NCBI RefSeq assembly: GCF_018350175.1 | Contig: NC_058368.1 | Coordinates: 84,198,001-84,262,000, forward strand | Length of the DNA: 64,000 nt | Direction: 5' to 3' | Source of the DNA: Felis catus | Lineage: Eukaryota | Shown here: positions 850 through 50,211 of the stretch, in pieces | How positions within the stretch are numbered: the first letter of the stretch is position 1 | How the letters are laid out: the number at the start of each line of letters is the position of its first letter | The notes under the pieces: generated by a model | Told to the model about the DNA's origin: nothing | What the model saw: the letters and a program-made list of their open reading frames with translations, nothing else | Database searches by the model: none | Position numbers and translations under genes: made by a program

Positions 850-981
850 CTATGCCAATAACTTCCACACACTTTGTCTCTGTACCAGTGCAGGTAAGAA
901 GAACTGGGTCACAGGAAATGTCATGCACATTGTAGCAGGCAGAACATTTAATTCCATTGGGTTTTGAGGACTTCCGAGGCA
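850..981 (-). pseudogene. Isolated 132-bp phase-1/phase-1 exon of a RoBo-1-like (LYPD8-cluster) LY6/uPAR gene, first half of LU domain 2; probably a gene remnant
   Basis: Acceptor tttctttcttcatttag| at 982-983 and donor |gtatgg at 849. Open frame (V)PRKSSKPNGIKCSACYNVHDISCDPVLLTCTGTETKCVEVIGI(G) has the PNG-x-x-C-x-x-C and C-T-G-x-x-T-x-C-V spacing of recalled rat RoBo-1 and parallels LYPD8 exon 43425-43562. No upstream exons found; the last exon would lie before position 1. Confidence 0.75.
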
Positions 982-1116
982 CTAAATGAAGAAAGAAAAT
1001 TTTCATTTTAAGGACAGGAAAAAAGGAGCTGAGAGCATTATTACCACCCACGGTTATTCCAGGATTCCTCTACCCAAAATCAAAATGATTTAAAATTAGG
1101 ATACCATGGAGGGTGC

Positions 1117-1138
1117 GGGGGGGGGGGGGGGGGGGGGG
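1117..1138 (+). repeat. G22 homopolymer
   Basis: 22 consecutive G after ggagggtgc. Confidence 0.95.
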
Positions 1139-1287
1139 AGAAGTATTAAGTGGGAATATATAGCCAAAAATAATCTTACAGAAATCTGGTTTATCTGCTT
1201 CTTTCATGAGATGGCCCTCTCTGCCCTGGCTGAAGAAAAAAATGCTTACATAATAGAAGATAATTTGTGATTTAAAAACTACTATTG

Positions 1288-2466
1288 AAGAATTATATGG
1301 TTTCAGATTTCACATTTAAGACCTTAATATATTTTTAGTTTATTTTTCTGTATGGTATAAAAGAGTGATCCAGTTTCATTCTTTTGCATGCAACTGTCCA
1401 GTTTTCCCAGCACATTTTTTTGAGAGACTGCTTTTTCCCCATTGTAAATTCTTGCCTTCTTTGTCATAGATTAATTGACCACATAAGTGTGGGCTTATTT
1501 CTCAGCTGTCTATTCTGTTCCATTGATCTATGTGTCTGGGATTTTTGTTTTGTTTTGTTTTTTGGGTTTTTTTCTGTTTGTTTGCTTTGTTTTGTTTTTC
1601 CAGTACCATACTGTTTTGATCACTGCAGCTATGTAGTGTATCTTGAAATCTGGGATTATGATATTTCCAGCTTTATTTCTTCTCAAGATTGCTTTGGCTA
1701 CTCAGAGTCTTTTGTGGTACAAATCTTAGTATTATTTGCTCTAGTTCTGTGAAAGATGTTGTGTTTTTATAGGGATTGCATATCTGTAGATTGCTTTGGG
1801 TAGTATGGACATTTTTTTTTTAATTTTTTTTTTCAATGTTTATTTTTGGGACAGAGAGAGACAGAGCATGAACGGGGGAGGGGCAGAGAGAGAGGGAGAC
1901 ACAGAATCGGAAACAGGCTCCAGGCTCTGAGCCATCAGCCCAGAGCCTGACGCGGGGCTCGAACTCACGGACCGCGAGATCGTGACCTGGCTGAAGTCGG
2001 ACGCTTAACCGACTGCGCCACCCAGGCGCCCCATGGACATTTTAACAATATTGGTTTCTTCCAGTCCATGAGCAAACATAGGAAATAATGTCTTTGACAT
2101 CAGCTATAGAAACATTTTCTATATATGTCTCCTGAGCAAAGGAAACAAAAGCTAAAATAAACTTGGGACCTCGCCAAAATTAAAAGCTTTTGCACAACAA
2201 AGAAAAGCATCAACAAAATAAACAAGCAACCTACTAAATGAGTGAAGATATTTGCGTATTATATATCCAATAAGGGGTTTATATTCAAAATATATAAAAA
2301 ACTTACACAAGTCAATACCAAAAAATCCACAAATAATCCAATTAAAAAATGAGCAGGGGACCTGAATAGACATTTTTCCAGAAAAGATACAGATGACCAA
2401 CAGACACATAAAAAGATGCTCAACATTGCTAACATCAGGAAAATGCAAATTAAAACCATAATGAGT
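1288..2466. mobile_element. L1 ORF2 fragment with 5' inversion: minus segment ~1288-2072, plus segment ~2073-2466; 3' end missing
   Basis: L1 ORF2 3'-region sequence on the minus strand switches to plus at ..ccatgagc|aaacatagg, then stops at the SINE at 2467. Confidence 0.8.
1816..2032 (-). mobile_element. Young felid SINEC (tRNA-derived) with 11-bp TSD
   Basis: GGGGCGCCTGGGTGG head, CT tract and A tail on minus; TSD atggacatttt at 1805-1815 and 2033-2043; CpGs intact. Confidence 0.95.
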
Positions 2467-2684
2467 GGGGCGCCTGGGTGGCACAGTCGGTTAAGCGTCC
2501 GACTTCAGCCAGGTCACGATCTCGCGGTCCGTGAGTTCGAGCCCCGCGTCAGGCTCTGGGCTGATGGCTCAGAGCCTGGAGCCTGTTTCCGATTCTGTGT
2601 CTCCCTCTCTCTCTGCCCCTCCCCTGTTCATGCTCTGTCTCTCTCTGTCCCAAAAATAAATAAACGTTGAAAAAAAAAATTAAA
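2467..2684 (+). mobile_element. Young felid SINEC without matching TSDs
   Basis: Complete SINE; left flank aaaaccataatgagt differs from right flank aaagactggggagcg. Confidence 0.95.
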
Positions 2685-3009
2685 GACTGGGGAGCGGTTG
2701 GAGGTCACCTATCTTTTCCTTCCTGAAAACAGGTTTTCAGGAAATGACAAAACCTAATTTCACACTCTGAATTCCAGGTCTCATTTTCTATAAGTAACCA
2801 TGAGCTACTTTGTCTCAGAGACAAAAACATATAAATGAAGCCTGTCCAAGAATCACCTTCAACTTCAATCCAAGTTTCTCCTGCTCAGCCTTTGTCACAA
2901 CCTCAAGATGAAAGATTAAAATGTTATGTGTTTCTTTCTTTGAAGAGATGAAAAGGGCTATTTTGCAGAGAGCCTGGCTTAACACAATGACAACAAGTTT
3001 TGAAGCAAG

Positions 3010-3150
3010 GCATTTCCCAGCTCTGTGGCCAAGTGTTGTGTGAACCTGGGCACAAGGTTTCACTATTCAGAGCCTCAGTTTCCTACTCTGCAGGGAAATA
3101 GTGATGCCTGCTTTGCAGGGTGGAAGTGAAGGCTTAAGGAGAGTGTGAAA
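3010..3150. mobile_element. MIR fragment
   Basis: Degenerate MIR core (tcccagctctg..gtgtgaacctgggc..agagcctcagtttcc). Confidence 0.55.
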
Positions 3151-6100
3151 TGACCATCACTGTGTAAACACAATGGACTTTGCCTCTGTCCACATCAGAA
3201 ACGTGTAAACAAAAATGTGCAGGTGTTGTTTGAATTTGAAAGAACAAGAGACAATGGGCCTATGGACTTGTTTAAATGTTGTATGTATGTCAATGTGGAT
3301 ATGAACGTCTGAGAGCCAAATCATAAGACAAGTGCATTCCATGTTTTCCCTCTGCCATCTCAACCCACCAGACATCTGACAGATGAACAGACACCCAAAA
3401 GCTCCCAGTGGTTTAGACTATGGGTCTGAGAGGTGCAATACAGGGTCCTCTCATGTGTGGATAGGAAGAAACATTGCATCTTTCTTTCCCTATCCTATAA
3501 CTGAAATGTAGTTTTTCTTTCCAAAAATGGAGTCCACAAACCACAGAAAAACCACCAACCCTTAGAAATTATTGAGGTTTTCCCATCATGTGACATCTGC
3601 AGATATATTCTTTGCCCTTATCAAGTACTTTCAGATTATGTCCTTATCAGTCCCCTGCAAGGGCCTGGTGACTGATGCATTCATAAAGAACCACATCTGT
3701 TCTATTCCGTACATTAGAGGAGTCTTCTAAGTGTATTCAATACAATTGTAATTTTATAAGGTTTGATTTTTCTCATGAGAAGGGGTTCATAGGTTCTACC
3801 ATCCTTCCTGGGTCACATATTATGGGAACCAGTGTTGCCACCCCACTTCTGTAAGTAGCAAAAGCACCAACTTCCTCTGAAACAGAACTTTGTATCCATG
3901 TCTCCAGGTCCATGAGGGAAGTATAGCCCAAGGCTATACATTTATAGTTCTCAGCCCTTTCTCCTAGTACTACCTGCCCATGAACTCCTGACCAGCTGAG
4001 GTGGCTGGAGATACAGGTGGTTTCTGGCAGGGATATGAGGCCAGGAGGTCAAACATACAGTGTGGACTTGGTCAAGATGTTCTCTAGTTTAATCCAAGTA
4101 TCTGTTGTCATCTAATGACACTAGTCATCCATCCCACCTGACTCACGGCATGCATGGTCTAGGACTTGAAGTGCAGGCTAGGCTCAGGAAATGATGTTCA
4201 GATGGAATGAGCCAGGTTTGTCTTCACTGATGGAGAGCTGTGAAGCCATCACTCGTCTACATGGAGTATAGAACATTAACATAGGGGCTGGGACCACCCA
4301 ACTCTGTGCCAACTTCCTGCTTCTCAGGGCAGGTCCTCAGTAAACCCTTCAGGGCTGTGGTTACTACAGGAAGCTGCCAGAGTGCCACTCAGAGGACACC
4401 ATTCCTGGAGGAAAGAGAAATAGTGAGAACACCTAAAGCATGGGAGTGTCTGAGGTTATGCCTTTTAGTTATGTCTCCCACCCACCTTCTACCTTCAGAA
4501 GTTCCCCCACAGAACCCCTTGCAGTGACCCCACTCTCTTAGATCAGTTTTGCTTATTCTTGTAACCAGAAACAACATTCTGTACCATGCCTGAAATAAAA
4601 ACCATGTCATGAGGAATTATCCCCATCCCGTCAGCCCAATTCCTGGTCACAGTTCTGAGAAGAACCCGCTCTTTTTTCTCCCTGACATTGCCTGAGGGAC
4701 AATGGGAAGGGAATAGAGAGGACTGTGGCTAAGCACACACACCTGGGAACCACTCACCAGCTTCTCTGGCTATCCATTCTCCCTCTGTAAAGTAGGGATA
4801 AGAACTGACCCCACTTCATAGATTTCTTTTCTGTGAGAGTAACGTGAGTCTACCTATACTCTCTGAGAAAAGCTCCTAACATCAGCACTAACTAGCATCT
4901 CTGTGTTCATGTATTTACTTTGGAAGATAAGGTAGCATTCCTTATGGAGCATTTGCTTCCTAACTAGGTTTCTGGACTCCAGGGATCAAAGACTCCATAC
5001 CCAGACCAGCTGGATACTGGGCTATAGAGCAGCCTCTCACAAGGCCAGTCAGGAGAGGTGGCAGCCCCTTTCTATAGACATGCAGTGGTCTTGCCCTGTG
5101 TCCTGAGACAACTTTAGGCTAGAAGAGAATCTTGGATGAACCCTAAGAAGTCTCTTCTTGGAATGGAGTCCTTCTCTTGTGAGACTTCCTCTGGTCAGAG
5201 GAATCTGACACCTGATCCATGAGTCTTCAGTGGGTTGAGTTAAATTGGGGGCAGTGGTATGCCCATCACAGGAAGTACCTAATATGCCAGGAAGCCAGGG
5301 CTGAGCCCCATGATGACTGGGTAAAGTGCCAATGTTCATACAGAATTCATAGAGGGAGCCTCTCTTCCCTTATAAGTCTGAGCACTCAAAAAGGGAATGG
5401 GCACAGTTACCATGCCTCATTCATAATAGTGGACCCTAATAGAGGGCTGGAAAGGAGTGGAAGAAGGAACAGAGCAATGTGGACCAGCCTAGTCAGAGCA
5501 GCTGATCCAGGTTGGGGAGACCCTCTATCTTCTGAGCCCAAAATAACATCCTTTTTGTTCAGCCAGGGTCTATCACCCAGTCCCTGGTCAAGGCTTTGCG
5601 ATTTGGGTCAGAAATGCCCTGGGCAAGTGGAGACAGAAGCAACAGAAGGATGGGGCTTCTGACAACAGAAGGTACAGGGAGAATGAGTAGGCATTGTTTC
5701 AGGAAAAGGAACAGATTTAGGACAAAGCAAACATCCTGTCCATGCTCCTTGTTTCTAGGTATTCTGCGCTACTTGAGAACATTGGATGTAACCAGAAGGC
5801 ATAGGACATCTCCTCACCTCTCTTGATCCTATTTTAGCGTGTGATGCCTCAGAGGTTTATTTGCTGCAGTGTGTGACCTTCTATGGAGAATTACCCCCTG
5901 GACCCAGGCCTACTTTACTCCCTGACTACTGTATTTGGTCAGGCAGTATGGACATGGTGTGGGCACAGAAATGAAGAAAAAAATGCCCACTGCTTTCATG
6001 GCAGTAACTTGGCAGGAGCCACAGGGCAAATGGCAACTAGGTCAGACCCATTATCCCATACATGGGAGGCCATTGTCATGGTCAAATGAGATGTAAACAC

Positions 6101-6679
6101 AACACTCAGCCGCTGAATGATCTCCTCACTGGCCTGCCCTTTCTCACCTTTACTGCCTTCACTCTCAGTTTTTATTCTCTGGCTTCTCCTTTTCTCAGTT
6201 TTTGGGGACCTCCAAGGTGGCATCTGCTATCTTGATTAAAAAAAAAAAAAACTAAAGAATGCATTAAGGGCTCAGAGAGGAGGCCAGCTTTGTGGAGCAG
6301 CTGGCACCTACTAAGAGATAAGGTGAAAGTTTCCACACAGTCAACATTCCAGCCAGAGAGTGGAGGACAGAGAGGTCTAGCACTGCCACCTGGGGCCTAT
6401 TTGACTTTGTACTTACTGGAGTCATCCAGGGTACTTTGTCACTTATGTTTCTTTTGGTGCCAAGAGGACTGTCCTTAGGACCCCTACCTCTGCCTGCTGG
6501 CCATGATGTTAGAATGCCCATTTCCTGGTCACACAGCTGGTCATGAGTAGGGTAGGAATGGGAGGCCCAAGTACAGGTGTAACTCATCTCTCACCACTCC
6601 CTGAGGAGTACAGTATTGAGAGAGGTCAGAGACCACCTTACTCCCTGGTCTAAAGGCTTCCAGGGCCAATGTGGGCTTT

Positions 6680-6870
6680 CATCCTCGTTCTGCTGTATGA
6701 CCCTTGTCTAGTGACTCAAACTCTCCTTCCTCAGTTTCCCCAGTTATAAAATGAGGATAAGATGGGAGTAATCACATGGAGTAGTTGTAAGGTTTTTCAT
6801 GAGTTAACATATATATAGCGCTTAGAGCAAACAGTGCCTGGCCCAAGGAAGCTCTCACCAAGAATTGCTG
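6680..6870. mobile_element. MIR fragment
   Basis: cctcagtttccccagttataaaatgaggataa..agcgcttagagcaaacagtgcctggc resembles the MIR core and tail. Confidence 0.6.
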
Positions 6871-7964
6871 CCATTGTTATCATTTATTATCAACTGTGTG
6901 CCTGAATTTCTAGGCAACAGTGAATGGGCACAGACCTTATCTGCAAAGAGGGAACGTAAGAGAGAAAAAGTACAGGGAACAGGTGTAGAGGCCCCCTAGA
7001 TATGAGGAGAATGCTCACCCAGCCCAAGCATTACACATGGTTGGCTAAGCTTGGTGCATTCTGGGGGTTGGGGGGGGCGGGAGACAGAGAGAGACATGGA
7101 CCCAACTGGACCAAATTCCTGCTTTCAGGTGCCATGTTCCTGGGACAGCACCAGCATAAAGCATGTGCATATAGGGCCCCTGAGTCAGAAACTCTATTAA
7201 TTTCCCACAGGTGGAAAGAGCAGTGAGCCTTACCTGGGGTCCATGAAGCCTAATGAGGCCCTCCACCATAAAGGAATCAAGAAGGCACCCAGGAAAGTTT
7301 CTGTCCACTGTGAGCCCAAGAATGTCCAGTGGCCAGGATGAGATGCAGGCAGCACTGAGACCAGACAGCCTCTGGGGGAGGCCAGAGTTAACCCAGGAGG
7401 GGATAGTGTCACTTTCATCATCCAGAATGTAAATCTATGGTTTCCTCATCTGGGTGAAGTGGTTGAAGTGGGGACTCTTGTGGGTGGAGGTACCTTTGGG
7501 CCAGATGCAAGAGCTTAGAGAGTGCAGACGGCAGAGCCAGACTCAGGTGAAGCATTGTGGGGACAGTGTGGTCTGCAAAAGGCTTTGCCCCATCTCCACA
7601 GTCCTCCCTCATCTACCATTTTTCCTTCTCTCCTTTTATGACTCAGGCATATGGGGATTCACCTGCAGGTTCTAAACAATGGCCTCTACTCCTCAGAAAC
7701 TGAAAGCCAAGTATTAACACGTTACATTCAGGTCAAGGCAGAGACCAAGTTCTAAAGGGTTTCACTTTTGTTCAAATCCTTTGATCATGTAAATACTAAC
7801 ACTTATATTTTTCCTAACAGTTTGTGAGATATATATATTTTTTCATATATATGATATATATTTTTCATATATAAAGATATGAATCTTTTTTCATATTACT
7901 GTTATATGGCTCAGCATTTATTACTTAACATTCAATTTGGGAGAACTTTTTTTCTCATTAAAAT

Positions 7965-8850
7965 ACTTTTTTAATTTAATTTCAAGTTAGTTAACATATA
8001 GTGTAGTATTGATTTCAGGAGTAGAATTTAGTGATTCATCACTTTCATATAACACCCAGTGTGCATCCCAACAATTGCCCTCCTTAATGCCCATCACCCA
8101 TTTAGCCCATCCCCCCCATCCACTTCCCTCCAACAACCCTCAGTTTGCTCTCTGTATTTAAGAACCTCTTATGGTTTGTCTCTCCCTCTGTTTTTATTTT
8201 TTCCTTTTCTTCCCCTGTGTTCATCTGTTTTGTTTCTTAAAGTCCACATATGAATGAAATCACATGATATTTGTCTTTCTCTGACTGACTTATTTCACTT
8301 AGCATAATACACTCAAATTCCATCCACTGTGTTGCAAATGGAAAGATTTCATTCTTTTTGATCACTGAGTAATATTCCATTGTATGTATGTACCATTTTT
8401 TCTTTATCCATTCATCAGTCAATGGATATTTAGGCTCTTTCCATAATTTGGCTATTGTTGATAGTGCTACTATAAACATTGGGGTGCATTACCCCCTTTG
8501 AATCAGCACCTTTGTATCCTTTGTATAGTTACCTAGTAGTGCAATTGCTGGATCATAGAGGATTTCTATGCCTAAATTTTTGAGGAACCTCCATACTGTT
8601 TTCCAGAGTGGCTGCACTAGTTTTCATTGCCACTAACAATGTACAATGGTTTCCCTTTATCCACATTTGCACCAACATCTGTTGTTTCTTGGATTGTTAA
8701 CTTTAGCCATTCTGACAGGTGTAAGTTGGCATCTCATTGTGGTTTTGATTTGTATTTCCCTGATTCAGAGTGATGTTGAGCACCTTTTCATGTGTATCTT
8801 AGCCATCTGGATATCTTCTTTGGAAAAGTGTCTATTCATGTCTTCTTCCC
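7965..8850 (-). mobile_element. 5'-truncated carnivore L1 (ORF2 C-terminus and 3' UTR)
   Basis: Poly-T at ~7965; ORF 8237-8479 reads as L1 ORF2 C-terminus ([24 protein letters not shown]). Confidence 0.9.
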
Positions 8851-9010
8851 CTTCACTAGACTATTTGGGTTTTAATTGTTACATAGACAAATCTTGTACC
8901 TCCCTTTCTGTGAGCTCCATGTGGTGGGATTTCCATCTACTTTGTTTACTCTTGCGCTCTCAGCACTTTTAATGCTAGTAGCTAGTCCTAGTTGGTGAAT
9001 GATTGTTCTT

Positions 9011-9617
9011 TTTTTTTTAATTTTTTAATTTTTTTTTTAAATTTACATCCAAGTTAGTTACTATATAGTGCAACAATGATTTCAGGGGTAGATTCCTTAA
9101 TGCCCCTTGCCCATTTAGCCCATCTCCCCTCCCACAACCCCTCCAGTAACCCTCTGTTTTTTCTCTATATTTAAGAGTCTATTGGGGTGCCTGGGTGGTG
9201 CAGTCGGTTAAGCGTCCGACTTCAGCCAGGTCACGATCTCGCGGTCCGTGAGTTCGAGCCCCGCGTCAGGCTCTGGGCTGATGGCTCAGAGCCTGGAGCC
9301 TGTTTCCGATTCTGTGTCTCCCTCTCTCTCTGCCCCTCCCCCGTTCATGCTCTGTCTCTCTCTGTCCCAAAAATAAATAAACGTTGAAAAAAAAAATTAA
9401 AAAAAAAAAAGTCTATTATGTTTTGTCACCCTCCTTGTTTTTATATTATTTTTGCTTCCCTTTCCTTGTGTTTATCTGTTCTGTGTCTTAAAGTCCTCAT
9501 ATATTTGTCTTTCTCTGACTGACTACTTTTGCTTAGCATAATACTCTCTAGTTCCATCCATGTAGTTGCAAATGGCAAGATTTCATTCTTTTTTGATTGT
9601 ATATATATATATATATG

Positions 9618-9655
<38 letters not shown>

Positions 9656-10103
9656 ACATCTTCTTTATCCATTCATCTATTGATGGACATTTGGGCTCTT
9701 TCTACTCTTTCCATACTTTGGCTATTGTTGGTAGTGCTGCTACAAACATTGGGGTGTATGTGTGCCTTCGAAACAGCATAACTGTATCCCTTGTATGAAT
9801 ACCTAGTAGTGCAATTCCTGGGTCGTAGGATAGTTCTATTTTCAATTTTTTGAGGAACTTCCATACTGTTTGCCAGAGTGGCTACACAGTTTGCATTCCC
9901 ACCAGCAGTGAAAAAGACATCCTCTTTCTCTGCATCCTCGCCAACGTCTCTTGTTGCCTGAGTTGTTAATGTTAGCCATTCTGACAGGTGTGAGGTGGTA
10001 TCTCATTGTGGTTTTGATTTGTATTTCCCTGATGATGAGTGATGTTGAGCATTTTTTCATGTGTCAGTTGGCCATCTGGATGTCTTCTTTGGAGAAGCGT
10101 CTA
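9011..10103 (-). mobile_element. 5'-truncated L1 with 17-bp TSD; contains a SINE and a (TA)n tract
   Basis: TSD ggtgaatgattgttctt at 8994-9010 and 10104-10120; ORF2 C-terminal peptides in ORFs 9441-9659 and 9842-10060. Confidence 0.93.
9184..9410 (+). mobile_element. Young felid SINEC inserted in L1 3' UTR
   Basis: Full SINE; gtctatt duplicated on both flanks. Confidence 0.95.
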
Positions 10104-10878
10104 GGTGAATGATTGTTCTTGATCTAAGAACACCATTTTTTTTAAAGAAAATATTTCATACCTCTTATATAACTTTTAAAATGTATGGGAAACAACATGT
10201 GATGATAGAATTCACCTTTACGGGCCACATTTCTTGAGTTTAGCCCCCTTTTTTGTGCTTTAATATACTTTGATATTTCTCTAAAAGAAGTATAAAATAC
10301 AATCAGTATCCTGAATCAAAAGAGCTGATATTACTTCTTTGGCATTCTAAGTAGACTTTTGACTAACTAGAACCTGGGCTGTACCCACTGTAGACATGAC
10401 CCAGGCTTCCACTTAACCTGACAGCATCATAAACACAGAGCTGCTCAGCTCCAAAGTACTCCATGGCCATCTCCAGCCTGAACTTCCTCAGGAAACACCT
10501 TTCCACACCTCTGATAGCTAGGTTTCTCATATGGTGAAGCAAACACACAAATATAAAATCAATCTCTTTTATTTGGATTCTGGAATATCTAAACAAGCAG
10601 GTGCCATCCAATTCCTGATGGACTCCAAAAAACCTCAGATACTGCATAGGAAGACTTCCTTCCACAAAGATATAAATAAGCAGAGGCAACACACACTTCC
10701 ACATGCATTCACACACAGGCACATTCACACTCAAATATTCATATACATTTAGAAGATAAAATAGAAGTCCTTGAGGAAGTCAGGGCAAATGGGCCTTATG
10801 AAACAGGAAAACTTCATGAAATAAGAAAAAAACCAAAAGCAATAATGAGGTGTAGAAATTGTTAAAAATATATATAGG

Positions 10879-10950
10879 GAGGGCACATTTTGGGATGAGC
10901 GCTGGGTGTTGTATGGAAACCAATTTGACAATAAATTTCATATTAAAAAA
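10879..10950 (+). mobile_element. Very short felid L1 3'-end insertion, followed by (TA)n to ~11020
   Basis: ttttgggatgagcgctgggtgttgtatggaaaccaatttgacaataaatttcatatt closely matches the 3' end of the full-length L1 at ~21030-21090. Confidence 0.85.
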
Positions 10951-10966
10951 TATATATATGTATATG

Positions 10967-11022
<56 letters not shown>

Positions 11023-11163
11023 AAAGAGGGTGAGATGAAGTATGGGAGCAGAGGGTTGAGAACAAGGGGTGTGGGAACAGAGGGAAGGAAATAGATATCA
11101 GGATCACCAACCTCACCTCACTATCATTCTTGACCACACCACCAGCAAAGTGATTGGGAAAAA

Positions 11164-13465
11164 GGAAAATGCTTGTCTGAAAACATAAATATTTCCACCA
11201 AAGCTAGTATTGCCCACTGAATGAATAGGTCCAATCAGGTAAGGTGTAAATGGTCCAAAACACCAAGTCAATTTTCAGGTTTCATGTGTCCTAAACAAAA
11301 TGTCCTAAAGCACCTGAGGTTGTGGTAGCCAGAAGCATGTTACAGGTGACAATATCCTAGATACCCTTCAGGAGAGTAACCTATTTATGGAATAAACCCA
11401 AATGTCTCAATTGACTTTGAAATTTCTGGTCTACAAAATCACATACATTCTCTTAACCTGAACTTGTAGTCCCAGAATGCTGAACACTATAGATGAGAAG
11501 GAAATAGAAAAATGGAAGTAGAACTTGAATGTGCAACATCAGTGATAAACAACTACAAAGTGGTCAGTCCTGTGGTGAATTTTTTTTTTCTCAACATGAG
11601 CCATAGGCAACACCATTTCAAGTTCTCTGATGCATTAATATTTTTAGAATGTTCAGTACTATAATCTGGATTTCATTGAAGCAAGTAAGGAATCTAGCCT
11701 TTGAAATTCCAGATTCAATCCCATTATAGTAACCTCAGCCCCAAATATCTCAACTAGCCGTAATGTCCCTACATATTTGTACATGGATGGTGTCCCTCCA
11801 TCTATATTACCAGTCTGCAAGGTAATTTGACCTCTATTCAGCACAGCTGTGTAGATCTAGCAGCATTCTAGCTGGTGTTTCAGTTTAATTTCATGCACCT
11901 CAACAAGCCCATCCACTTTCCAGGCTTGTCCTGCATCTAACCCAGCAATCCAACAGCCAGAGCAGCAAGGCCACCAACTCACTAGTCCACAACTACCAAC
12001 AGTTTATCCATCTGGTAGCTCACAGTCATCATGTATTAGCCAATATAGCATTCAGAATATTTCAACAGAACCTCAAAAAACTAATTGAAATCAAACTTAA
12101 ACCCCTACTGAGAAATATTTCTTCAAAATAGCATTTACCCGGCTTTGAACCTCCAGCACCTCCTCCTTCATTAACAGCCAAACTATAATAGAAATCAGTG
12201 CATGATTACATGTCCCCCAAATACTAATGCGGCAATGTCCTACAGTGAACATAGTATATATATCAAAGACACCAAGAAGATGAACAAATCATGCAGAGTC
12301 AGCCTTCATTTCTCATATCTACAAATCTTGGAGCATCTGCTGCCTCCAAAAGTATGACCAGGCAAGTGATTATATACTCCGCTTTTATTTGTTACCACTC
12401 TGCCAAATATAAAGTAATAGGCAACAGCTCTGCCAAGTCTCCTCAAGCAGTGGTCTTTCATCTCAACAAAATATCCATTCAAAATTTTCAGGTATATAAT
12501 ATAAAATTTCACTAAATGGGTGTCGTCATTTTTTGAACTTTCAAATCTCCTAACCTTCCTGACTGTTGTATAGACATAGTGCATTCAGCAGCTCATGGAT
12601 CCAACTTTCAAACATGAGAATAGAATAACAGAAGTGTAGAGAGTGAGCATTATTGGTTGTTATAGGCTGAATTATGTTTTCTAAAAAATCAGATTCTGAA
12701 GACCTAAACTCATTGCTGATTACCCCAAAATATGACTATATTTGGAGATAGGGCCTTTAAAAGGATAATTAGGTTAAAATGAGGTCATTAGTGAGGCCCC
12801 TAATTCAATATGACTGGTGTCTTTATAAGAAGAAGAGATTAGGACACAGTTATAGAGAGAAGATCATATGATGATACAAGGAGAGCGGTCTCAGAAGAAA
12901 GGAACTGTCCAATCAGTTCTTTGATCTCACATTTCTAGTTTATGGTACTTTACTATGGCATCCCTAGCAAACTAATACATTGGTAGATTAAAAAAAAAAA
13001 AAGAATAGAATAGCTTCAAAGAGAACTTAAGATTTTAAAAAAGTTCTGGATAAGCTAAAATCTAGAGTCAATGAAAGAAAGAATAGGCTAAATGGAATAT
13101 GTTTGAAAAAAATAAAATTTCATGTCACAAAGACTTGCTGTAGTGGTAAAGCTACACCACACAACTCCAGATTGACACTGGATACCTCAAGCAGAGACTG
13201 GATTTTTCAAATCTCAAGACCACATTTTAATCCCCATGACAAGTTTGAATTTGTAGGTTCTGTGCCACCAAAACCCAAAGAAAAAAGACTGAGCATACAA
13301 CCATAGAAGACTCAAGCCATAGATGAGCAAAGGGATTCATTGAAATTGTGCTGTGTCTACCTATTTGCCCACCCACTCTCAGTTAATTTTGAGCAGTGAG
13401 AACTGCCAAGGAATTTCTGAGCCAAAAGGCTCAATATATTCTCTGAACCCACATTCAAAGCTTAG
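11164..13465 (+). pseudogene. TAB2: TAB2 processed pseudogene, highly decayed, interrupted by an LTR at 12658-12979; ATG remnant 11250, stop 13418-13420
   Basis: Collinear, intronless peptides match recalled TAB2: PEVVVARSMLQ (CUE domain), [59 protein letters not shown] (ORF 12291), ALLV..LQRELKI..LDKLKSRVNE, RPHFNP..FVGSVPPKPK (ORF 13103) and EQ*ELPRNF* (NZF end). Many stops and frameshifts. Confidence 0.92.
12658..12979 (+). mobile_element. MaLR solo LTR (MLT1A-like) with 5-bp TSD
   Basis: Starts tgttataggctgaatt, ends ctagcaaactaataca; TSD ttggt at 12653-12657 and 12980-12984. Confidence 0.88.
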
Positions 13466-14915
13466 GAGGAGTGACATCATCACCATGGCAGAATGAGAGT
13501 TTCTATTTTCCCCACAAAGAATGCTGATTTTAACAATCACCCACAAAAAGAATGCTTTTGTACAATCTGATAGTCTAGAAGAGAAGTTCCAGCACACAAT
13601 TGGAGCCAAAAATATCTACAATTAGATGCTTTGAAGAGGTTAAGAAGAACAGTTTCACCTTGGGGATTAAGGAGTGCACTTGTGATGAGTACTGAGTGAT
13701 GTATAGAACTGTTGAATCACTATATTGTATATCTGAAACTAATATAACATGGTATGTTAGCTAACTGGAACTTTTTTAATGTGAAAAAAAAAATCTAAAC
13801 ACACACACACACACTCAAGAACAGTTTCAGAACAGTTTCACTTTACCCACATCATCCATCTCCCAATGGCACAGTGCCATGAGAGAACTGTTCTTTCTAC
13901 CACAGGGAATGTGACAGTGTGTCAGTGAGTACCTAGCTTCCCCAGTTATGAAGATGCTGCCCAAGAGGCCCAACTATTTCTTACTCTATCCAGAATACTG
14001 AATCACAAACTTAAAGATAGTGGGCAATGAATAGCTGGAAAAACAGAGCAAGGGCATGGAATAAAATGTATCAAGTGAAATGCAAATCCTACTAACCCAA
14101 ACTCCATAAAGAAGCCTGCCCACAAGCTACTGAGGATCCCTCCAACTGGCCCATGAGCACTCCAACACACTCTGTGCCTCCCTTACATATCCATTCACTC
14201 CATGATTGATATCTTGTGCATCCCTCAGATGGTTAAGGGGCAGAACTTGGCCAAAAGTTAGTAGGCATACATGGAAAGCCAACACAACTGTGTTGGATAA
14301 AGGACAAAAACCTGAAAATTCAACACCACCCTAGGAAGTGAGCAAATGGAAGGTTGTCAGCACTGTCTGGGTATTGCAGGATCAAGAGGAGGCATAAAAT
14401 CTTAAGAGAGTCATCATAAAATGAAACAAAAAGTGTCTATAGATGTATCCACAGAAAAGATCTGAGAAATCCCTATAAGCCCTAACAGAACTAAAGAAAG
14501 GTGTTTTTCTTCAGAAACCAGTCAGTAAACAGTGGAGGAGATCATTTTTTTTAATGCAAATAAAACAACACAAAATGTTAAGGAACTTACTTAAAAAAAA
14601 CAAAAACAGAAAAAGACACAATAACAAAAATGAGAACTATAGAGAACTACTATGTTACCTACTACAGAGAAAGAACAGAACTACTATGTTATCTATGAAT
14701 AACATAGATGCAAAAACTCTTCAACAAAATATTAGCAGGCCGAATCCAGCAATACATTAAAAAAAAAAATCATTCACTGCAATCAAGTGGGATTTATTCC
14801 AGAGATGCAAATGTGGTGGTGTTATCTACAAATCAATCAACATGATACATCATATTAGCAAGAGAAAGTATGAAAACCATCTAATCAACTCAAGATGCCA
14901 AAAAAGCATTTGACA
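13465..14915 (+). mobile_element. Older L1, left part: putative 5' region joined to an ORF2 RT segment by an internal deletion
   Basis: 14690-14915 is L1 RT (SMNNIDAKTL..QVGFIP..DAKKAFD) and continues at 21133 after the nested L1. Assignment of 13465-14600 to an L1 5' region is weaker. Confidence 0.65.
13661..13816 (+). mobile_element. Short carnivore L1 3'-end insertion with TSD and (CA)n tail
   Basis: ggagtgcacttgtgatgagtactgagtgatgtat..ctgaaactaatataac; TSD aagaacagtttca at 13645-13657 and 13817-13829. Confidence 0.75.
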
Positions 14916-39841: not shown

Positions 39842-40131
39842 TCAGAGTAGCAGCCTCAGCAGAAGGAGGCTGGCAAAGGCTGCAGGGGTGAAAGAGACTT
39901 TGGACCCCATATCTGGGGTGGTGGGCTCATTGGAGATGGGTGTTGAGGAGCTGCCAACAGGAGGGGTGGTCAAGGTTGCATTGGGAATGGCGGTTGAGGA
40001 GGTGTTGGCACTGTCTACACACTCAAACTTTCGGAAGATGACTCCTCCAATTGTCCGGTTCTCAGAAGATAGGAACTGACAGGTAGAGTTACTGATGTTG
40101 GAACAGCCTTTCAGCACAAGCGTCTTAGACT
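39842..40131 (-). CDS. LYPD8: LYPD8 last coding exon (290 nt incl. stop): end of LU domain 2, Ser/Thr/Pro stalk, GPI signal
   Basis: Acceptor ccattgcattcacag|AGTCTAAG; TGA at 39842-39844. Confidence 0.92.
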
Positions 40132-43100
40132 CTGTGAATGCAATGGAGACAGTAAGGACTTCACCTCCCTTTTTTTGCTTCTTCCACAGGTCTCTCAGCA
40201 ACCTGAAACCTGTTTTAAATCTAAAACAAGAGCTTAGAGGAAGGACCTAGGATCAAGAACACCAAATGGAGGGGCGCCTGGGTGGCTCAGTCAGTTAAGT
40301 GTCTGACTCTTGATGTTGGGTAAGGTCATGGTCTCATAGTTTGTGAGTTCCAGTCCTGCATCAGGCTCTCCACCAACAACACAGAGCCTGCTTCAGATCC
40401 TCTTTCTCCCTTTCTCTCTGCCTCTCCCTCTCTCTGCCTCTGCGCTCTCTCTCTCTCTCTCTCTCTTTCAAAATAAATGAACATTAAAAAAACAAAATAA
40501 CACCAAATGGTAATAGAAGAGGGGCCACATAGGTCAGAACACAGACTCCCACCTAACTCCAGAAGAAACTGAAGCTCCAGAAGGTGGATGCAAGCCTGAG
40601 CTCACAGAAATGAGCCTGGGACTCAAATCTCCAGTGTTTACTTGAGGAGCTGACAGGTGACAAAATCCAGGGATGGGCTCATCCCCTCTGCTCTCAGTCC
40701 AGGAAGGTCTTCTCCCAGACTCCCCTCCTCCAGGTTCTGCTTTCCATCCCCACTTTTCTTTAGACCTGAGTTCTCTCTGCCTGAATTTTCTCTAAGAAAA
40801 CTAGAGGTGATCTTAATTCTAAATCTGAATTATATTGTATTTAACCCTGTTAAAGGTGCAAGTCCTAGGAAAAGGCCAAGGGAATTTGCAAAGAAGATGT
40901 TGTTGTGATTGCAACTACCATTATTGAATTCATAGTATGTGCCAGTATTGCTCTAATGGCTACAACTTAAACAGCTCTGGGGAACAGACAGTTCACAGGG
41001 GAGGAAAAACCTGGAAGGGACTAGCTACTTATCTGAAGAAGGGCTACAAACTTGCTTTGAGAAGGAAGGAAAACTCTCCAAATCCCTTTGAAGAAAACAA
41101 TGACTTACTTTTCTATAGAAAATAGCAGTGCTGGAGATTGAATTAGAGTGAGCTACAAAAATGTGTTGCTTGGCACATGTCTACAGTATTGGGGAGGGGG
41201 GAAAGTGGGCAAAAATAAACAAACAAAAAAACACCCCTACATGTATGGCCACTTTGATCTGTCTGGCCTTCAGATTAAGTCAAATACTATGGATTAAAAA
41301 AAAATCTATCCTTGGCACCAAAAGATACCTGGGAACAAGCTGAGTGGAAAGAGAAATTCTTTCTGATGTTGTTGTTATCTTTAGACATAGTTTAGAATTA
41401 AACATCAGAACTGTGTTTAAATCCTAGGGATTTTTAATTTTTTTTTGAAAATCCTTATATCACTAAATGAGAGAAGTCAATGTGAAAAGGCTACATACTA
41501 TATGATTCCAAATATATGATATTCTGATAAAAGCAAAATTATGGGGAGAGTACAAAGATCTGAGGTTTCCAGGGGTAAGAGATTAATAGAGGATTTTTAG
41601 GGCAGTGAAACTACTGTGTGTGATGCTATAATGGTAGATACATGTCATTATACATTTGTCAAAATCTATGGAATATGCAACACAAACAGTGAATCCTAAT
41701 GTAAACCTTGGACTCTGGGTAATAATGATGTGTCAATGTAGGTTCATAGATTACAACAAATGTTCGATTTTGGTGTGGAATGTTGATAGCAGGGGGAGTC
41801 TATGTATGTGTGGGAACACATATGGGGTATGTGGAAATCTCTTTACCTTTTTCTCAATTTTTCTGTAAACCTAAAACTCTTCTAAAAAATCTTTAAAAAA
41901 GTAAAAAATAGTTTCAAGATACATGTGATGTTTGACCCAACTGAAAAATCTGCAATTACATGTAAACATGGATTTCCAATACTATAATTGCCATTAACAA
42001 AAGTTGAAATTAAATTGTACTTGAGTGTTGGTGTTCTTAAACTATTTTTATTCTGAGCCGTATTGTGACGGAGACTCACTGGCTGTTCTAATTTTAGCTT
42101 CATGTCTCTTCCTTTCCTGCTGGGCCACCACTAGACACCATTAGAATGCATTTCCACCCTCCAATGCAGTTTGGGTTCTGGCCAACAGAATGTGAGAAAG
42201 TGACTCATGCACCTCCAGACCTTGCCTATAAAAACCTGCCTGCCTGGGTTCCTGGGTTGCTCAGTAGGTTCATGAGTTTGAGCCCCCCATGGGGCTCTCT
42301 GCTGTCAGTGGGGGGCCCACTTTGGATCCCCTGTCTCCCTCTCTCTGCCTCTCTCTCTCTCTCTTTCTCAAACATAAACATTAAAAAAAAAAAAGACTTT
42401 CCTGACTTCCTCCACTCCTTCTCTTTCCCCCACCTATTGGTGAGATTCAAAGAATATAGCAGGCAGCTGCCAAGTCCTGGGTAGGTGGGAACCAGAGCCT
42501 CGAGATGGAAGAAACACAGGCCCCAAACTCTGCAATCAACTGCCATATGAGCAAAAAATAAACATCTGTTACATTGAGCCAGAGGATTTAGAGGTTGCTT
42601 TTTAACAGTAATAAACATAACCTAACTAATAAATGTATTATTCCTTAAATACTTGGGTATAGTATTAGCTTTGTATTTTATAATGGTTAACTTGTGGGGC
42701 TCCTGGGTGGCTCAATCAGTTTAGAGTCAGACTCTTGGTTTCAGCTCAGGTAATGATCTCATGGTTTGTGAATTCAAACCCCACATCAGGCTTTGTGCTG
42801 ACAGCAGAGAACCTTCTTGGAATTCTCTCTCTCCCTCTCTCTCTGACCCTCTCTTACTCTCTCTCTTCCTCTCTAAATAAATAAATAAATAAATAATAAA
42901 TAAATAAATAATTAACTTGTATTTCATAATGGTTAATATCAAATTAATTCTATAGAAAAAAAAGCAAATTGTTGGCTCTTAAACCCAATCTAACTCTTTC
43001 AGTCAGGTGATCCATGTTGTCATAAGCCGACACTTCTCAGTGACAAGTAGAGAGAAAAGTGTTAAGTATTAAAAGGAAATAAAAGCAAACACACACCCCC

Positions 43101-46100
43101 ACAGAACAACCCAACCTAGTAAAGAAATAAATGCCAGGAATGACATGATCCACTTAAACAGGCCTGGCTTGATTATAAGCCACAGTAGAACAAGGTTCAA
43201 GAGGTGGACAGCCCAGAAGGAATGGTTCTGGACTAAGGTGGCAGAAATAGCAACCAGCTCAAGGCTACATTAACAGCCTCACTATCTCAAAGACATTCTG
43301 ACCTTGTCTTTTTATCCTACTAACATCCCCCAGCCTTCTTTTGTTAACCTAGAACTTATTACCCAACACTTGATATGTTTTCAACTCAAGTCTCATAAAA
43401 GGAAATTAAAACCCCAAGACGTACCAGTCTTAAATTCTGCAACTAGACTAACACACCGTTCTTCTTTATAACATTTCCTGGATTTCACACTACAGGAAGT
43501 TTCATTAGATCCATAACATGCAAGACACTCTGTGTTGTTGGACATATCTTCCTGTAGAGGAGCTGGGAAGAATAAGAGTAATTTAGAACAGTGTTAAAAC
43601 ACAGAACATGGTACTGCCTTGTACTGAAGGAGACAAGCAAGCAAATATGCTGGCCAGAGAGAACTTGAGAATGGGCAATTGCATGAAGACACTAATCATC
43701 CCAGCCGAATAGTTACATATCCCCCCAAAACAGTTATAGCACACAACCCCACACACTTGCCCTTACAAACCATTCAGTCTTTAAGAACTATGGTCAGTGG
43801 TTGTGTTGGGCTGAGAAGAAAACCAACCGATGCCAACATTAGCCAGCTATGCTGAACACGCCAATAAGTGTATAGATGTTACTAAATCTTTCTCTGAATA
43901 GGGGTACCTGGGTGGCTCAGTCAGTTAAACATCCAATTTCGGCTCAGGTCATGATCTCACAGTGAGTTTGAGTCCTGTGTTGGGCACTGTGCTGACAGCT
44001 CAGAGTCTGGAGGCTGCTTCAGATTCTGTGTGTGTGTCTCTCTCTCTGCCCCTCCCCAACTCGTGCTCTGTCTCCCTTGCTCTCTCTAAATATATATATC
44101 TTTCTCTCTGCCTCTCTCTCTCTCTCTGTTCCTCTCCCCCCAAAATAAATAAAACTTTAAATAAATAAATATTTCTCTGAATAAATGAACACATGCCATT
44201 ACTTACCAAAATTATACTGAGACCCAGTTCTGCTATTAATGAGCTATGCTAGAACTATGACCAATTAACCTTGCCTTTGTGGCTATGTTTTCTTCTCCTT
44301 GAAAAGAGAGCTTTGGTAGGAGGGGCATCTGGGTGGCTCAGTCAGTTAAGTATCCTACTCTTGATTTCAGTTCAGGTCAGGATCTCATGGTTCATGAGTT
44401 CAAGCCCCACATTGGGCTCTGCACTGACAGCAAGGAGCCTGCTTGAGATTCTCTCTCCCTCTCCATCTGTTCCTCTCCTGCTCTTTCTCTCTCAAAAATA
44501 AATAAACACTAAAAAGAGAGAGAGCTTTGTATGGACCAACAGTTGTCAAATTATGGTCCAAGAACTACTGGGAATCACCCAAGAATCTTTCAGGGAGTCC
44601 ACAAGGTCAAAAACATTTTCATGATAATACTAAGATGTTCGTTGCCTCTTTCACTCTATTTCTCTCATGAATGTACAGTGGAGTTTTTGAGAGGTTACAT
44701 GACATGAGAGATTGCAACAGATTAAATAAATGCACAAGCAAATCTGAGAACCCAGTTGTCTTCTATTAAGCCAGAAACCAAAGATGTTTGAGAAAATATG
44801 TAACAATGCCACTTTTCTTACTAAACATTATGTTTTGTTTTGGAAGATAGCTTTTTTCTATTTAAAAGTGTTATTAATGTTCACATGTGGGTTTATTATT
44901 TTTTAGGAAGCTCAATAAAGATTTTTAAAATTTCTTTTGGACATTTTTTTAATTTTTAAAATTTCTAATACAGTAAATACTGATCATATGGATCACATAA
45001 ATCAAAGTTCTCTGGAGTTCGCCATAATTTTTAATACCTACAGTCTTAAAATAGGGCCTGAAACCACATTTTAGAACTACTAATAAGCATCTAATTCCAT
45101 CCAGTTAGACAGACAGTCTAATTCTGTCTGTACTTGGAAAAGAGGAAAGCATGAGAGTAGTGGTGGTTTTCCCATTTTCCTGTAATTGTTGTAATTGTTG
45201 TAAGTCAGCTATTTATATTACTTAGATATGTACTGAAGTTCTTGGACCTGAGATGTACCCCAGAGAGTGAGAACCACAGGTGGCAAAGGAAGGGACAGGG
45301 CCAGGTAGACAGAGGGAGGATGGCACATTGCCAGCACCCACCTAGAGCATCACTGGTGTCATTACACTCCTTCCCTTGGCAACACTGGCTTGTAAAGTGA
45401 AAACGTTCTTCACCAGACACGTGGACAGTGAAAGCTTCAACCATGTCTCTTCCTTCCCTGCAGTTCTCTGCAGAGCAGGCCTTATCCTGATATAATGCAA
45501 TGGCTGCCGCTGCACAAAGACAAACACACAATATCATCCCTGGGTGCTGAAGCTTCAGAGAGGGCAGAGACCCTGAATAGTGACTGCTTCAGGAAACAGT
45601 AGAAACATATCCTCAGTTCAATGTGATTTCAGAGACACTTGGGAGAGTTTCCTGCAAAAAGAAAAAATTTTCCCCATGAGGTAGTTCCTTCCTTTTCCAG
45701 GAGACTAGCAGAGGTGCAGGCTAAACTTCAGGACAAAGACTGATGAGGAGCTTGAAAATGGTAGTTCGGGCCAATATTCCAGAGTGCACTTATCAGTCTT
45801 AGCATCTTGAAAAATAGCCAAGCAGATCTGATGGTCCTAAGTGCAATCTGATGTTAAACCTGAATACAGTCAAGCTTTTAGATCAGAGCTATCTGATATG
45901 GTAGTTAGCAGCTATATGTGGCTATTTAAAATTCAGCTCTTCAGTCATATAACCACATTTCAAGTGGCCAATAACTACATGAGGCTACTATATAAGACAG
46001 CATTGGTGTAAACTTTTCCATTATTGAAGAAAGTTCTACTGAGCAGCATGGATCCAATTTATAGGAAAATACCAGAAATAGGGGAAGAAAGAAATGACAC

Positions 46101-47885
46101 CACAAAGAAGCAATTAACCAAAGCCAGAATATGAGACAAATATAGGACAAATGGTCCAGTTTCTCCAACAAATCAGTGGGATTGAACAACAACAACAAAA
46201 TGATGATTGATTCCTGTTATAAAACAAATTGGACATATTAGATCTGACAGCAAAATACAGTGTGAGGATTTTGTTTATATATAAATTTTAATACATTAAC
46301 TATAACACAACATCTGAAACAATTGGGACATTTTTAAGATGTCCTGGCTACTACAGAAAATTAAAGAATTCCAGCTAATTTTCTTAGGTATATAAAGGTA
46401 TGGTAGTTACATAAAGAGAAAAAAAAAGTCCTTATCAGAGATGAATAGTGAAGTATTTTTAGGTGAAATTACATGATATCTAAGTTTTAAAATACCATTG
46501 CATGGGCACCTGGGTGGCCCAGTTGGTTAAGCATCCAATTTTGGCTTAGGTCATGATCTTATGGTTCATTAGTTCAAGCCCCACATCAGACTCTGTTCTG
46601 GCAGCTCGGAGTTTGCTTGGGATTCTGTCCCTGCCCCCATCTCTTTCTGCCCCTCCCCCACTTTCTCTCTGTCTCTCTCTTTCTCAAAAAAAAATAAGTA
46701 AATTTTAAAACAAAAGAAAAAATAAATTTCAAAAAATAAATAAAATATTATTACAAAAAAAGGCAAAATGTTGATAATTATTGACACAGGATAGTAGTTA
46801 CATGGCAATGCATTATATTCTTCTTCTTGCTTTTGTGCATATTTGAAAATGCCCATAATAAAAAGTTAAAAATAAATCTAAGTGCTCTGAGAGAGAGGTA
46901 ACAATCATGCCAGGAAAACACCCTGGGAGAGAGTATGAGTGAAAGTATGTTGGATCTGGAACAGGAATGAGCACTGAAACAGAGAAAATTGGGGAGGAAA
47001 AATGGAAGAATGCAAGCACCCAGAGCAAAGTTCCTGCTTTGCAGTTTACTAAGAGGTTCCCCTGCTTCTCACATCCACTAATTCAGGTACAGAATGAGAT
47101 TTCAGTCAAGAGCAGCCATTCCAAAAAGCCACAAGGGCTTGTCTGTTTGCTCCTGCATTTTCATCTGACTTCTGAATTTTGCTTCTTCTGGAAGGCATAT
47201 TCATGAGCCCATCTCTCTTTGCACAGCTGGGCCTTTCCTCAGCCTTCCTTTCTTCCCTGGCCACCCTCTCCAGCTCCTGCCCCATGCAAATCCCAGAAAT
47301 GGGGGTTATAGCATCCCAGACTCACCTAGAGAAGAGTTGGCCAAGAAACTGGTACAGCTGACATTGGCACTTGAGGGACACCCAGTGATGCTGCTGTTGA
47401 CACAGGAGTTTGTCAATGAATTACACTGCACACAACTCAGGGATTCTGGGGAGACAAGATGTCCAACATTGTCAACATTCAGGAGACACTTATAGAGTGT
47501 ACTATGGACAAAACACCACATCCATCTCAAGCTAAAGGAATAGCTGGGAGGTATCCCTTCCCTCTGGCATCCCCCAGACTTGAGGCTGTGAGATATAGCC
47601 ACCCCCATTAGTTTCTCTCCACTGTCCACCATTTCCCACTGGGAATAACCACAGCACAGAGCTCCAGCTCCACTGACACCAGTGTGCACAAAGAGGTCTC
47701 CCATTATCCACTGACCAGACTTTGACATGAGAGGCCACATGAGAGAACCCCAGAGCACCAAGAACAGAAGACCTTGATGAGGTGTGAAAAGAGGTCTTTA
47801 TTCCCAAACGGTGTCATTGTTTTCCCTCACCTACAGCTGTTACCACAAGTGCCGCGATGATACAGGTAAGGAGGATGCCTTTCAT
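39842..47885 (-). CDS. LYPD8: LY6/PLAUR domain-containing protein 8; join complement(47831-47885, 47326-47445, 45342-45509, 43425-43562, 39842-40131) = 771 nt, 256 aa
   Basis: All introns are GT-AG, phase 1, and the joined frame is open. Protein: MKGILLTCIIAALVVTAV-ESLSCVQCNS..CSAENC..AFTVHVSGEERFHFTSQCCQGKECNDTSDAL..CLACYGSNETSC..CYKEERCVSLVAEFKT-ESKTLVLKGCSNISNSTCQFLSSENRTIGGVIFRKFEC..GSKVSFTPAAFASLLLLRLLL. Closely matches recalled human LYPD8; signal peptide, 10+8 Cys LU domains, hydrophobic GPI tail. Confidence 0.96.
40271..40498 (+). mobile_element. SINEC in LYPD8 intron, antisense to gene
   Basis: TSD aacaccaaatgg at 40258-40269 and 40499-40510. Confidence 0.92.
41455..41900 (+). mobile_element. 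Ancient L1MC-type 3' UTR fragment
   Basis: aaaaggctacatactatatgattcc..gtgaatcctaatgtaaac..gatgtgtcaatgtaggttcat..ctaaaactcttctaaaaaat. Confidence 0.75.
42246..42393 (+). mobile_element. Internally deleted SINEC inside an old MaLR-like LTR (~42100-42635)
   Basis: SINE head joined directly to the mid-body; flanks resemble MLT1 (ttctggccaacagaatgtgag; aaataaacatctgttacattgagcc). Confidence 0.7.
42696..42911 (+). mobile_element. SINEC, antisense to LYPD8
   Basis: ttaacttgt duplicated on both flanks; (AAAT)n tail. Confidence 0.9.
43425..43562 (-). CDS. LYPD8: LYPD8 coding exon 4 (138 nt)
   Basis: ttattcttcccag|CTCCT..AAGACTG|gtacgt; encodes APLQEDMSNNTECLACYGSNETSCSVKSRKCYKEERCVSLVAEFKT. Confidence 0.95.
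43901..44171 (+). mobile_element. SINEC with duplicated CT tract, antisense to LYPD8
   Basis: tttctctgaata duplicated on both flanks. Confidence 0.9.
44322..44515 (+). mobile_element. SINEC, antisense to LYPD8
   Basis: gagagctttg duplicated on both flanks. Confidence 0.9.
44536..45080. mobile_element. hAT-Charlie non-autonomous DNA transposon (MER119-like)
   Basis: ctttcagggagtccacaaggtcaaaa..ataatactaaga..tgtacagtggagtttt..tgtcttctattaagccaga; degenerate terminal inverted ends (..ttttagaactact). Confidence 0.7.
45342..45509 (-). CDS. LYPD8: LYPD8 coding exon 3 (168 nt)
   Basis: tttgtctttgtgcag|CGGCAG..GCTCTAG|gtgggt; contains CSAENC and CCQGKECN. Confidence 0.95.
   Translation of the reverse strand, partial: RQPLHYIRIRPALQRTAGKEETWLKLSLSTCLVKNVFTLQASVAKGRSVMTPVML
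45883..46047. mobile_element. MER3-like hAT MITE
   Basis: atgtggctatttaaa..cacatttcaagt..tttccattattgaagaaagttcta. A similar copy lies at ~48820-48990. Confidence 0.6.
46504..46760 (+). mobile_element. SINEC, antisense to LYPD8
   Basis: gggcacctgggtggcccag head; long A-rich tail. Confidence 0.88.
47326..47445 (-). CDS. LYPD8: LYPD8 coding exon 2 (120 nt)
   Basis: cttgtctccccag|AATCCCTG..TCTCTAG|gtgagt; encodes ESLSCVQCNSLTNSCVNSSITGCPSSANVSCTSFLANSSL. Confidence 0.96.
47831..47885 (-). CDS. LYPD8: LYPD8 signal-peptide coding part of exon 47831-47940
   Basis: Acceptor tttgtgtctcttcag| at 47941-47942; Kozak agcaccATG at 47883-47885; MKGILLTCIIAALVVTAV; donor G|gtgagg. Confidence 0.95.
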
Positions 47886-50188: not shown

Positions 50189-50211
50189 TTAGAGCAGGTG
50201 TGTGAAGGGCC

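Follow-up and report, generated by a model that had tools for sequence, protein, structure and literature searches.

A full-length, very young CanSINE at positions 2466..2684 (plus strand) of a 64-kb stretch of the domestic cat genome, referred to here as the window, marks the junction of a deletion that has removed the 3' end of the L1 element in which it lies and the exons encoding residues 1–111 of a RoBo-1-like gene. The feature is real, and the core inference of the first-pass annotation, made from the DNA letters, was right. Recombination between two SINEs in direct orientation is the best mechanism for the deletion, and judged on the sequence we would give it about an even chance of being the true one. 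The mechanism proposed earlier is plausible, and the event is a new instance of a known process, while the accompanying view that a gut-barrier gene was recently lost was overstated. The deletion call rests on protein models and L1 anatomy rather than on aligned outgroup DNA.

A young SINE with mismatched flanks

Five near-identical, full-length young SINEs are present in the window, at 2466, 9183, 63348, 2033 and 17133; they share 94–98% identity with the query SINE, the next best match standing at 82%. Exact TSDs of 8, 10, 11 and 13 bp surround four of the five, whereas no exact TSD was found around the junction SINE at 2466–2684, where allowing one mismatch retrieved only a 6-mer 82 nt off. 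This search of all five elements bears out the earlier observation that the other four have matched flanks and this one does not. Neither the candidate left TSD (2452–2465) nor the right flank (2682–2694) has a second copy in the 64-kb window. The junction SINE differs from the five-copy consensus at only 2 of 212 positions, both of them CpG, so that decay can be excluded as the cause of its missing TSD. Among older SINEs used as controls the strict search found no TSD in 6 of 11, and 5 of 11 remained without one when a mismatch was allowed (a 6-mer chance match being counted as a miss); because TSDs are missed in about half of the older elements, their absence is informative only for a young copy.

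On the left, the junction resembles the 5' end of an ordinary insertion. The flank is L1 ORF2, which stays 80% identical to another L1 copy as far as base 2465, and it contains an endonuclease-type site, TT/AAAA at 2450–2455, which lies 14 nt before the junction and is followed by an orphan left TSD candidate of 14–15 bp (site and candidate together 2450..2466, plus strand). The description of this flank as a normal endonuclease site inside L1 ORF2 therefore held. The strict TT/AAAA motif is expected 7–20 nt before a random break in L1 sequence with a chance of 0.02–0.10, looser endonuclease motifs occur there by chance in 10–24% of cases, and the strict motif is present in two of the four control SINEs; the argument from the motif is modest, at roughly 4–10 fold. 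On the right, the tail of the SINE consists of only 3 A after TT, compared to 4 to 12 in the control SINEs, and the flank opens with AAAG directly after it.

A reading of chimerism from the substitutions within the SINE was dropped, since with just two CpG changes from the consensus, and no diagnostic switch point among them, chimerism is unreadable; the 'chimeric' status given to the element earlier may be presumed but was not itself observed. The element presumably belongs to feliform CanSINE subtype IIB (SINEC_Fc1). According to PMC4084570, the youngest feliform CanSINE subtype arose within about 5 million years. CanSINE tail structure is treated in PMC9599045, in a way that has no bearing on the verdict here. 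In all four TSD-bearing young SINEs (9183, 63348, 2033 and 17133) the last base of the TSD is the element-initial T, and in three older SINEs (37586, 43901 and 57953) it is the element-initial A, a pattern which suggests a one-base microhomology at the 5' junction.

The truncated host L1

The host L1 is old (66–75% identity to other copies) and twin-primed, i.e. 5'-inverted. It comprises an inverted 5' piece of ORF2 (1289..2073, minus strand), interrupted by a young SINE, and a sense piece (2071..2465, plus strand) broken off at 2465, the left deletion breakpoint; positions 1289 and 2071 correspond to neighbouring bases, 22225 and 22226, in a second L1 of the window. A putative 5' TSD copy of this L1, presumed to play that role, lies at 1274..1287 (plus strand) after TT/AAAA, and its motif occurs once in the window. 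Twin-priming anatomy implies that the element once had a 3' end. In three other L1 copies 725–786 bp follow the matching site, and the host L1 now lacks at least 725 bp of its 3' end; neither a 3' poly(A) end nor a second TSD was found for it in the window, and their loss is in itself a deletion signal. From 2685 to 7900 L1 similarity is absent, the sole internal matches being a 69-bp dispersed piece and simple repeats, in agreement with the first-pass statement that the right flank is unrelated and the L1 does not resume.

An L1 ORF2 piece was also seen in the raccoon dog model P0038, where it is spliced in after the exon for aa 62–111, in an intron equivalent to that holding the host L1. Its identification with the host L1 insertion is unsupported, the piece being 67–77% identical to other L1 copies compared to 54% to the host.

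What remains of the RoBo-1-like gene

A single coding exon survives to the left of the L1, at 850..981 on the minus strand, with intact splice sites. It encodes residues 112–155, the first half of the second LU domain, and matches 'protein RoBo-1-like', with 41 of 43 residues (95%) identical to Panthera and Leopardus models. The cat exon carries Q114R, in common with Iberian lynx, and a private P125S, at a site that does not otherwise vary across a 13-row alignment. The last exon of the gene lies outside the window. The RoBo-1-like protein has 199 aa in lion, tiger, jaguar, clouded leopard, meerkat, bears and otter, and at full length it matches Pfam UPAR_LY6 (PF00021).

Residues 1–111 of the 199-aa orthologue, encoded by exons for aa 1–25, 26–61 and 62–111, were not found in the 64 kb by tblastn, nor were their exons found by codon-aware alignment over 984–14600. 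Exon HMMs also failed to recover them: those for two of the three segments match distant LYPD8 exons and the third matches nothing. A candidate signal-peptide exon at 4329–4355 (7 of 9 residues) was rejected, as its score is 23.2, the shuffle maximum being 22.7, and the similarity breaks off immediately. In the bear-like read-through ORF P0135 the exon for aa 62–111 is preceded by about 330 nt and followed by 156 nt, and this flanking intron has no tblastn match in the window; its two flanks reach 24 and 26 bits, compared to shuffle maxima of 24 and 22 (12 shuffles), whereas a control intron beside the surviving exon reaches 51 bits in the same codon-aware alignment. The flanking intron of this exon is missing as well. 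An intact ORF for a signal peptide and two LU domains is absent here, aa 1–111 being gone, and a secreted protein with two LU domains can no longer be made from the remnant.

Three models extended at the N terminus give independent anchors for the 5' end of the gene, all of them right of the junction and on the same strand as the gene. The N-terminal extension of a star-nosed mole model matches 4059..4111 (minus strand, 22.9 bits), a presumed 5' noncoding exon with a GTATGT donor at its end; none of 500 whole-window shuffles reaches this score, by a thin margin (maximum 22.2). Upstream of it, at 4284..4353 (minus strand), the 5' extension of the rodent-like model P0131 picks out a conserved noncoding stretch at 44.4 bits, compared to a shuffle maximum of 23.2 (12 shuffles), with a core of 32.6 bits reached in 0 of 500. 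On this evidence the two matches may represent a noncoding exon and a promoter element, respectively. A meerkat upstream extension matches 11385..11444 (minus strand, 46.5 bits, 0 of 500), either as a far-upstream exon or as a model artefact, and serves as a synteny anchor. The N-terminal extensions of P0114, P0032, P0048, P0050, P0051 and the dog model P0046 gave no convincing match in the window.

The left breakpoint lies in the L1 upstream of the surviving exon, within the intron before the gene's third LU exon. If the presumed exon is read correctly, the right breakpoint, at about 2682–2685, would fall 1.4 kb beyond the donor, within intron 1, and 2682..4058 (minus strand) would be the surviving 5' part of that intron, in which no start-codon exon is left. 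The annotation had the deleted interval holding the L1 3' end and the upstream LU exons, as the absence of residues 1–111 from the 64 kb and the anchors to the right of the junction support; it had also called the paralog 'decapitated', which does not fit, since the presumed promoter and 5' noncoding exon survive and the loss is internal, the gene having been gutted and its start codon removed. At least about 1.5 kb was lost, a floor made up of the missing L1 end, the three exons and the known intron flanks, and as LYPD8 introns here measure about 0.4–3.3 kb, a loss of several kb is likely.

A metagenome scan for host-derived contigs by protein alignment gave 32 pattern matches with 0 confirmed, and one using the right-flank motif gave 0 matches. 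Of 10 ORFs close to the junction that were looked up by exact match, none was found, not even the two positive controls over the surviving exon, so that the look-up was uninformative.

Synteny with LYPD8

Upstream of the broken gene, and on the same strand, lie the intact coding exons of LYPD8 (39842..47885, minus strand). Its five exon segments show 0 differences from Felis catus XP_019685551.2 and at least one from each of 14 other felid proteins, all of them with V121 in place of the cat's M, among the 15 listed of the 27 members of this cluster. The accessions of LYPD8 and RoBo-1-like follow one another in snow leopard, and contig adjacency of the two genes is supported in jaguar, leopard, Geoffroy's cat, meerkat, badger and polar bear. 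The model P0134 consists of an LYPD8-like and a RoBo-1-like part fused in tandem, which is consistent with adjacency of both genes on one strand in another mammal. On inspection by eye, 50137–50220 (minus strand) is likely to be the noncoding first exon of LYPD8; it has a TATA-like box and lies 2.2 kb upstream of the start-codon exon, a layout that parallels the one inferred for the broken RoBo-1-like gene.

Timing of the deletion and state of the gene in other cats

The exon for aa 62–111 is present in the Iberian lynx model and its 3' part in the Geoffroy's cat model, from which it follows that the deletion is younger than the split of Felis from the Leopardus and Lynx lineages. These lineages separated about 7–8 million years ago. 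A date after the split fits both the youth of the SINE and the age of at most about 5 million years for the feliform subtype to which it is presumed to belong.

Whether a working gene was lost in this event is a different matter. Full-length RoBo-1-like models were found in none of the 10 non-cat Felinae with a listed LYPD8, compared to 4 of 6 Pantherinae (Fisher p = 0.008, on annotation evidence). The Geoffroy's cat model has 119 aa and uses an internal Met as its start; that of the Iberian lynx is partial, with 136 aa, lies on a separate contig and has a one-residue deletion. Models in leopard, snow leopard and canids are also truncated. The lack of a full-length model in 10 small cats means that the gene was perhaps dead before the deletion, and while it is suggestive only that it was already failing in small cats, a working gene was probably not lost by the deletion event alone. 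As regards the earlier claim of a recent felid gene loss, the role of the deletion as its cause is doubtful.

A stronger version would have the deletion itself inactivate a functional gene, on the line leading to the domestic cat and no more than a few million years ago; the inverted SINE pair described below would have triggered a break, mended by repair between two direct copies, and undeleted two-SINE alleles would persist in some cats or wild Felis. We consider this distinctly improbable. If true, it would provide a dated, possibly still segregating knockout of a protein of the LYPD8 cluster, and the first worked example of SINE-pair instability leading to gene loss in a carnivore.

Proposed recombination between two SINEs and the alternatives

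In the favoured sequence of events, two young CanSINEs would have inserted in like orientation, one of them at the TT/AAAA site within the L1, the other in intron 1. They would then have recombined via unequal crossover or single-strand annealing. The product would be one SINE, with its 5' flank derived from the left element and its 3' flank from the right. In the Felis lineage a deletion of at least about 1.5 kb, and probably several kb, would have fused the L1 point to the intron-1 point, removing the L1 3' end, the signal-peptide/start-codon exon and the exons of the whole first LU domain. More speculatively, the initiating break may have come from the near-identical SINE in inverted orientation on the left (1811..2033, minus strand, 11-bp TSD), which forms a head-to-head pair with the junction SINE (1839–2033 and 2466–2660, 195-nt arms, 99% complementary, 432 nt apart). 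Inverted pairs of this kind are described in PMC3215922 as depleted in primates and linked to deletions, so that the present pair is a possible trigger; for Alu the configuration is reported to be unstable.

Recombination is favoured by the left junction, with its resemblance to an ordinary insertion 5' end, and by the record in primates, where deletions through recombination are far commoner than those mediated by insertion: 492 are reported in human and 663 in chimpanzee (PMC2041999), compared to 33 insertion-mediated deletions in the two species together, averaging under 300 bp and amounting to about 9 kb (PMC3543922). The density of young SINEs, with four copies within 15 kb, also counts in its favour. 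The primate prior is weakened by the requirement that both partners were very young or that the crossover was confined to an element end; counted against recombination, too, are the lack of a diagnostic switch point in the element, the report that about 68% of chimpanzee recombination deletions are under 1 kb (PMC2041999) and the short tail of the SINE, which fits a break inside the tail equally well. From the letters alone, recombination is inseparable from a deletion that accompanied the SINE's insertion or one that began in its A-tail.

If the deletion accompanied insertion, only a single SINE ever existed, reverse-transcribed from a nick in intron 1 with its 5' end joined to a distant point in the L1. 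We hold this to be unlikely, if the foremost of the alternatives. A single young element suffices for it, and it predicts a TSD-less, A-tailed element at an endonuclease site; here the tail is present, the TSD is absent and AAAG follows right after the tail. The nick site on the right is unreadable, because the bases 5' of it would have been deleted. Insertion-associated deletions can range from kb to Mb (PMC4859970), but those that became fixed are few and small, being the 33 events and about 9 kb cited above (PMC3543922), and the TT/AAAA found 14 nt before the 5' junction would have to be a coincidence, with the chance of 0.02–0.10 already given.

That site is accounted for, together with the very short tail, if one normal TSD-flanked SINE sat in the L1 and was later cut back, within its A-rich tail, by a deletion reaching to a short and likewise A-rich microhomology in intron 1, with loss of the right TSD, the end of the L1 and the exons. 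A plausible source of the break would be the neighbouring pair of inverted SINEs (PMC3215922), but the break must then have fallen within about 15 nt of the tail end, and we regard this account as somewhat less probable again.

An assembly collapse or mis-join between two near-identical SINEs, in an animal that retains the exons, would yield identical sequence, and is very unlikely. A repeat of 220 bp is short enough for long reads and most read pairs to cross it, and the TSDs were kept at the other four young SINEs. The 19 members of four exon-holding clusters include no Felis catus RoBo-1-like protein, though cat LYPD8 is annotated, which speaks only weakly against a collapse because the protein is missing from other small cats too. 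Least probable is that the SINE junction removed L1 sequence only, the exons having been lost elsewhere in 982–4058 or persisting as an intact copy at another locus: the left edge of the L1, at about 1289, does offer a second discontinuity, but this locus is identified as the orthologous one by its promoter-side anchors, by synteny with LYPD8 and by the conserved intron adjoining the surviving exon, the L1 is old while Geoffroy's cat and Iberian lynx retain the aa 62–111 exon or its 3' part, and the SINE junction is the only young discontinuity found.

Comparison with known systems

Recombination between two SINEs would make this event comparable to the ARMD-type deletions, with which it shares a single SINE without matching TSDs at the deletion, missing host DNA (as judged from protein models), the possibility of exon loss and a size inside the reported range of 111 bp to 32 kb. 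It differs in that the element is a carnivore CanSINE and extremely young, with the two-element ancestor and crossover window presumed only. Deletions associated with Alu, L1 and SVA insertion, as described in PMC4859970 and PMC3543922, are similar in that a TSD-less, A-tailed element replaces host DNA; here, unlike there, the 5' flank has a normal-looking nick site and a TSD-length spacer, neither of which such insertions need.

A young SINE also marks the loss of coding sequence in one lineage at human CMAH, where an exon was lost at an AluY. CMAH has a known function and phenotype, whereas the RoBo-1-like gene has neither and may have been inactive beforehand. Closer in kind are the LYPD9-type two-LU genes beside LYPD8, which have in common with it the family (UPAR_LY6), the neighbour and the strand, and which have repeatedly been broken in mammals. 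Unlike them, the carnivoran models lack a hydrophobic C-terminal tail, and one-to-one orthology with human LYPD9P or a particular mouse paralogue could at most be presumed. A hydrophobic GPI-type tail was seen in dolphin, pig, bat, primate, beaver and rabbit models, and is absent from six full-length carnivoran models (P0002, P0007, P0008, P0013, P0016 and P0020), which end at 199 aa; the early stop common to these six points either to a secreted form or to early decay.

We take mouse 4930504O13Rik/Lypd9, 2210407C18Rik and Gm12253 to be members of an LYPD8-type cluster. Mouse Lypd8 and Lypd9 are both placed at 11 B1.3 (PMC4839075), and LYPD9P, on human chromosome 1, is given as a pseudogene (PMC10159366). 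Testis is the listed site of expression for Lypd9 (PMC6842137, PMC4839075), stomach for 2210407C18Rik and many organs for Gm12253 (PMC6842137). An antibacterial role in the gut has been shown for LYPD8 (PMC5725809) and proposed for mouse Lypd8l (PMC10945560). The 'gut-barrier' label applied earlier to the deleted gene is thus documented, in PMC5725809, for its neighbour and does not carry over to the gene itself. A literature search for the original RoBo-1 work gave nothing relevant.

No report of this event, or of RoBo-1-like loss in cats, was found among the listings of open-literature searches; supplementary variant tables of cat genome papers may list it. The junction gives the Felis lineage a specific structural marker that can be checked, and it is a candidate for exon loss driven by a CanSINE, a kind of event that has been catalogued in primates. 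Its biological weight is limited, the gene having no known function and looking broken in canids, humans and perhaps most small cats; the weight would be greater if the gene proved intact in sister lineages or if the deletion varied among cats.

Other features of the window

Self-alignment and inspection by eye showed a dense L1 cluster at about 14640–34900 and another at about 56300–63900. The former region holds a near-full-length broken L1 (about 14917–21090) nested in an older L1, and two LTR-like inserts were noted by eye at about 24560–24950 and 26430–27040. At about 23080–23750, inside an L1, lies a frameshifted retrocopy of a gene for a short coiled-coil protein, with an A-rich tail, of which the segment 23304–23402 matches Pfam DUF2205 (E 5e-08).
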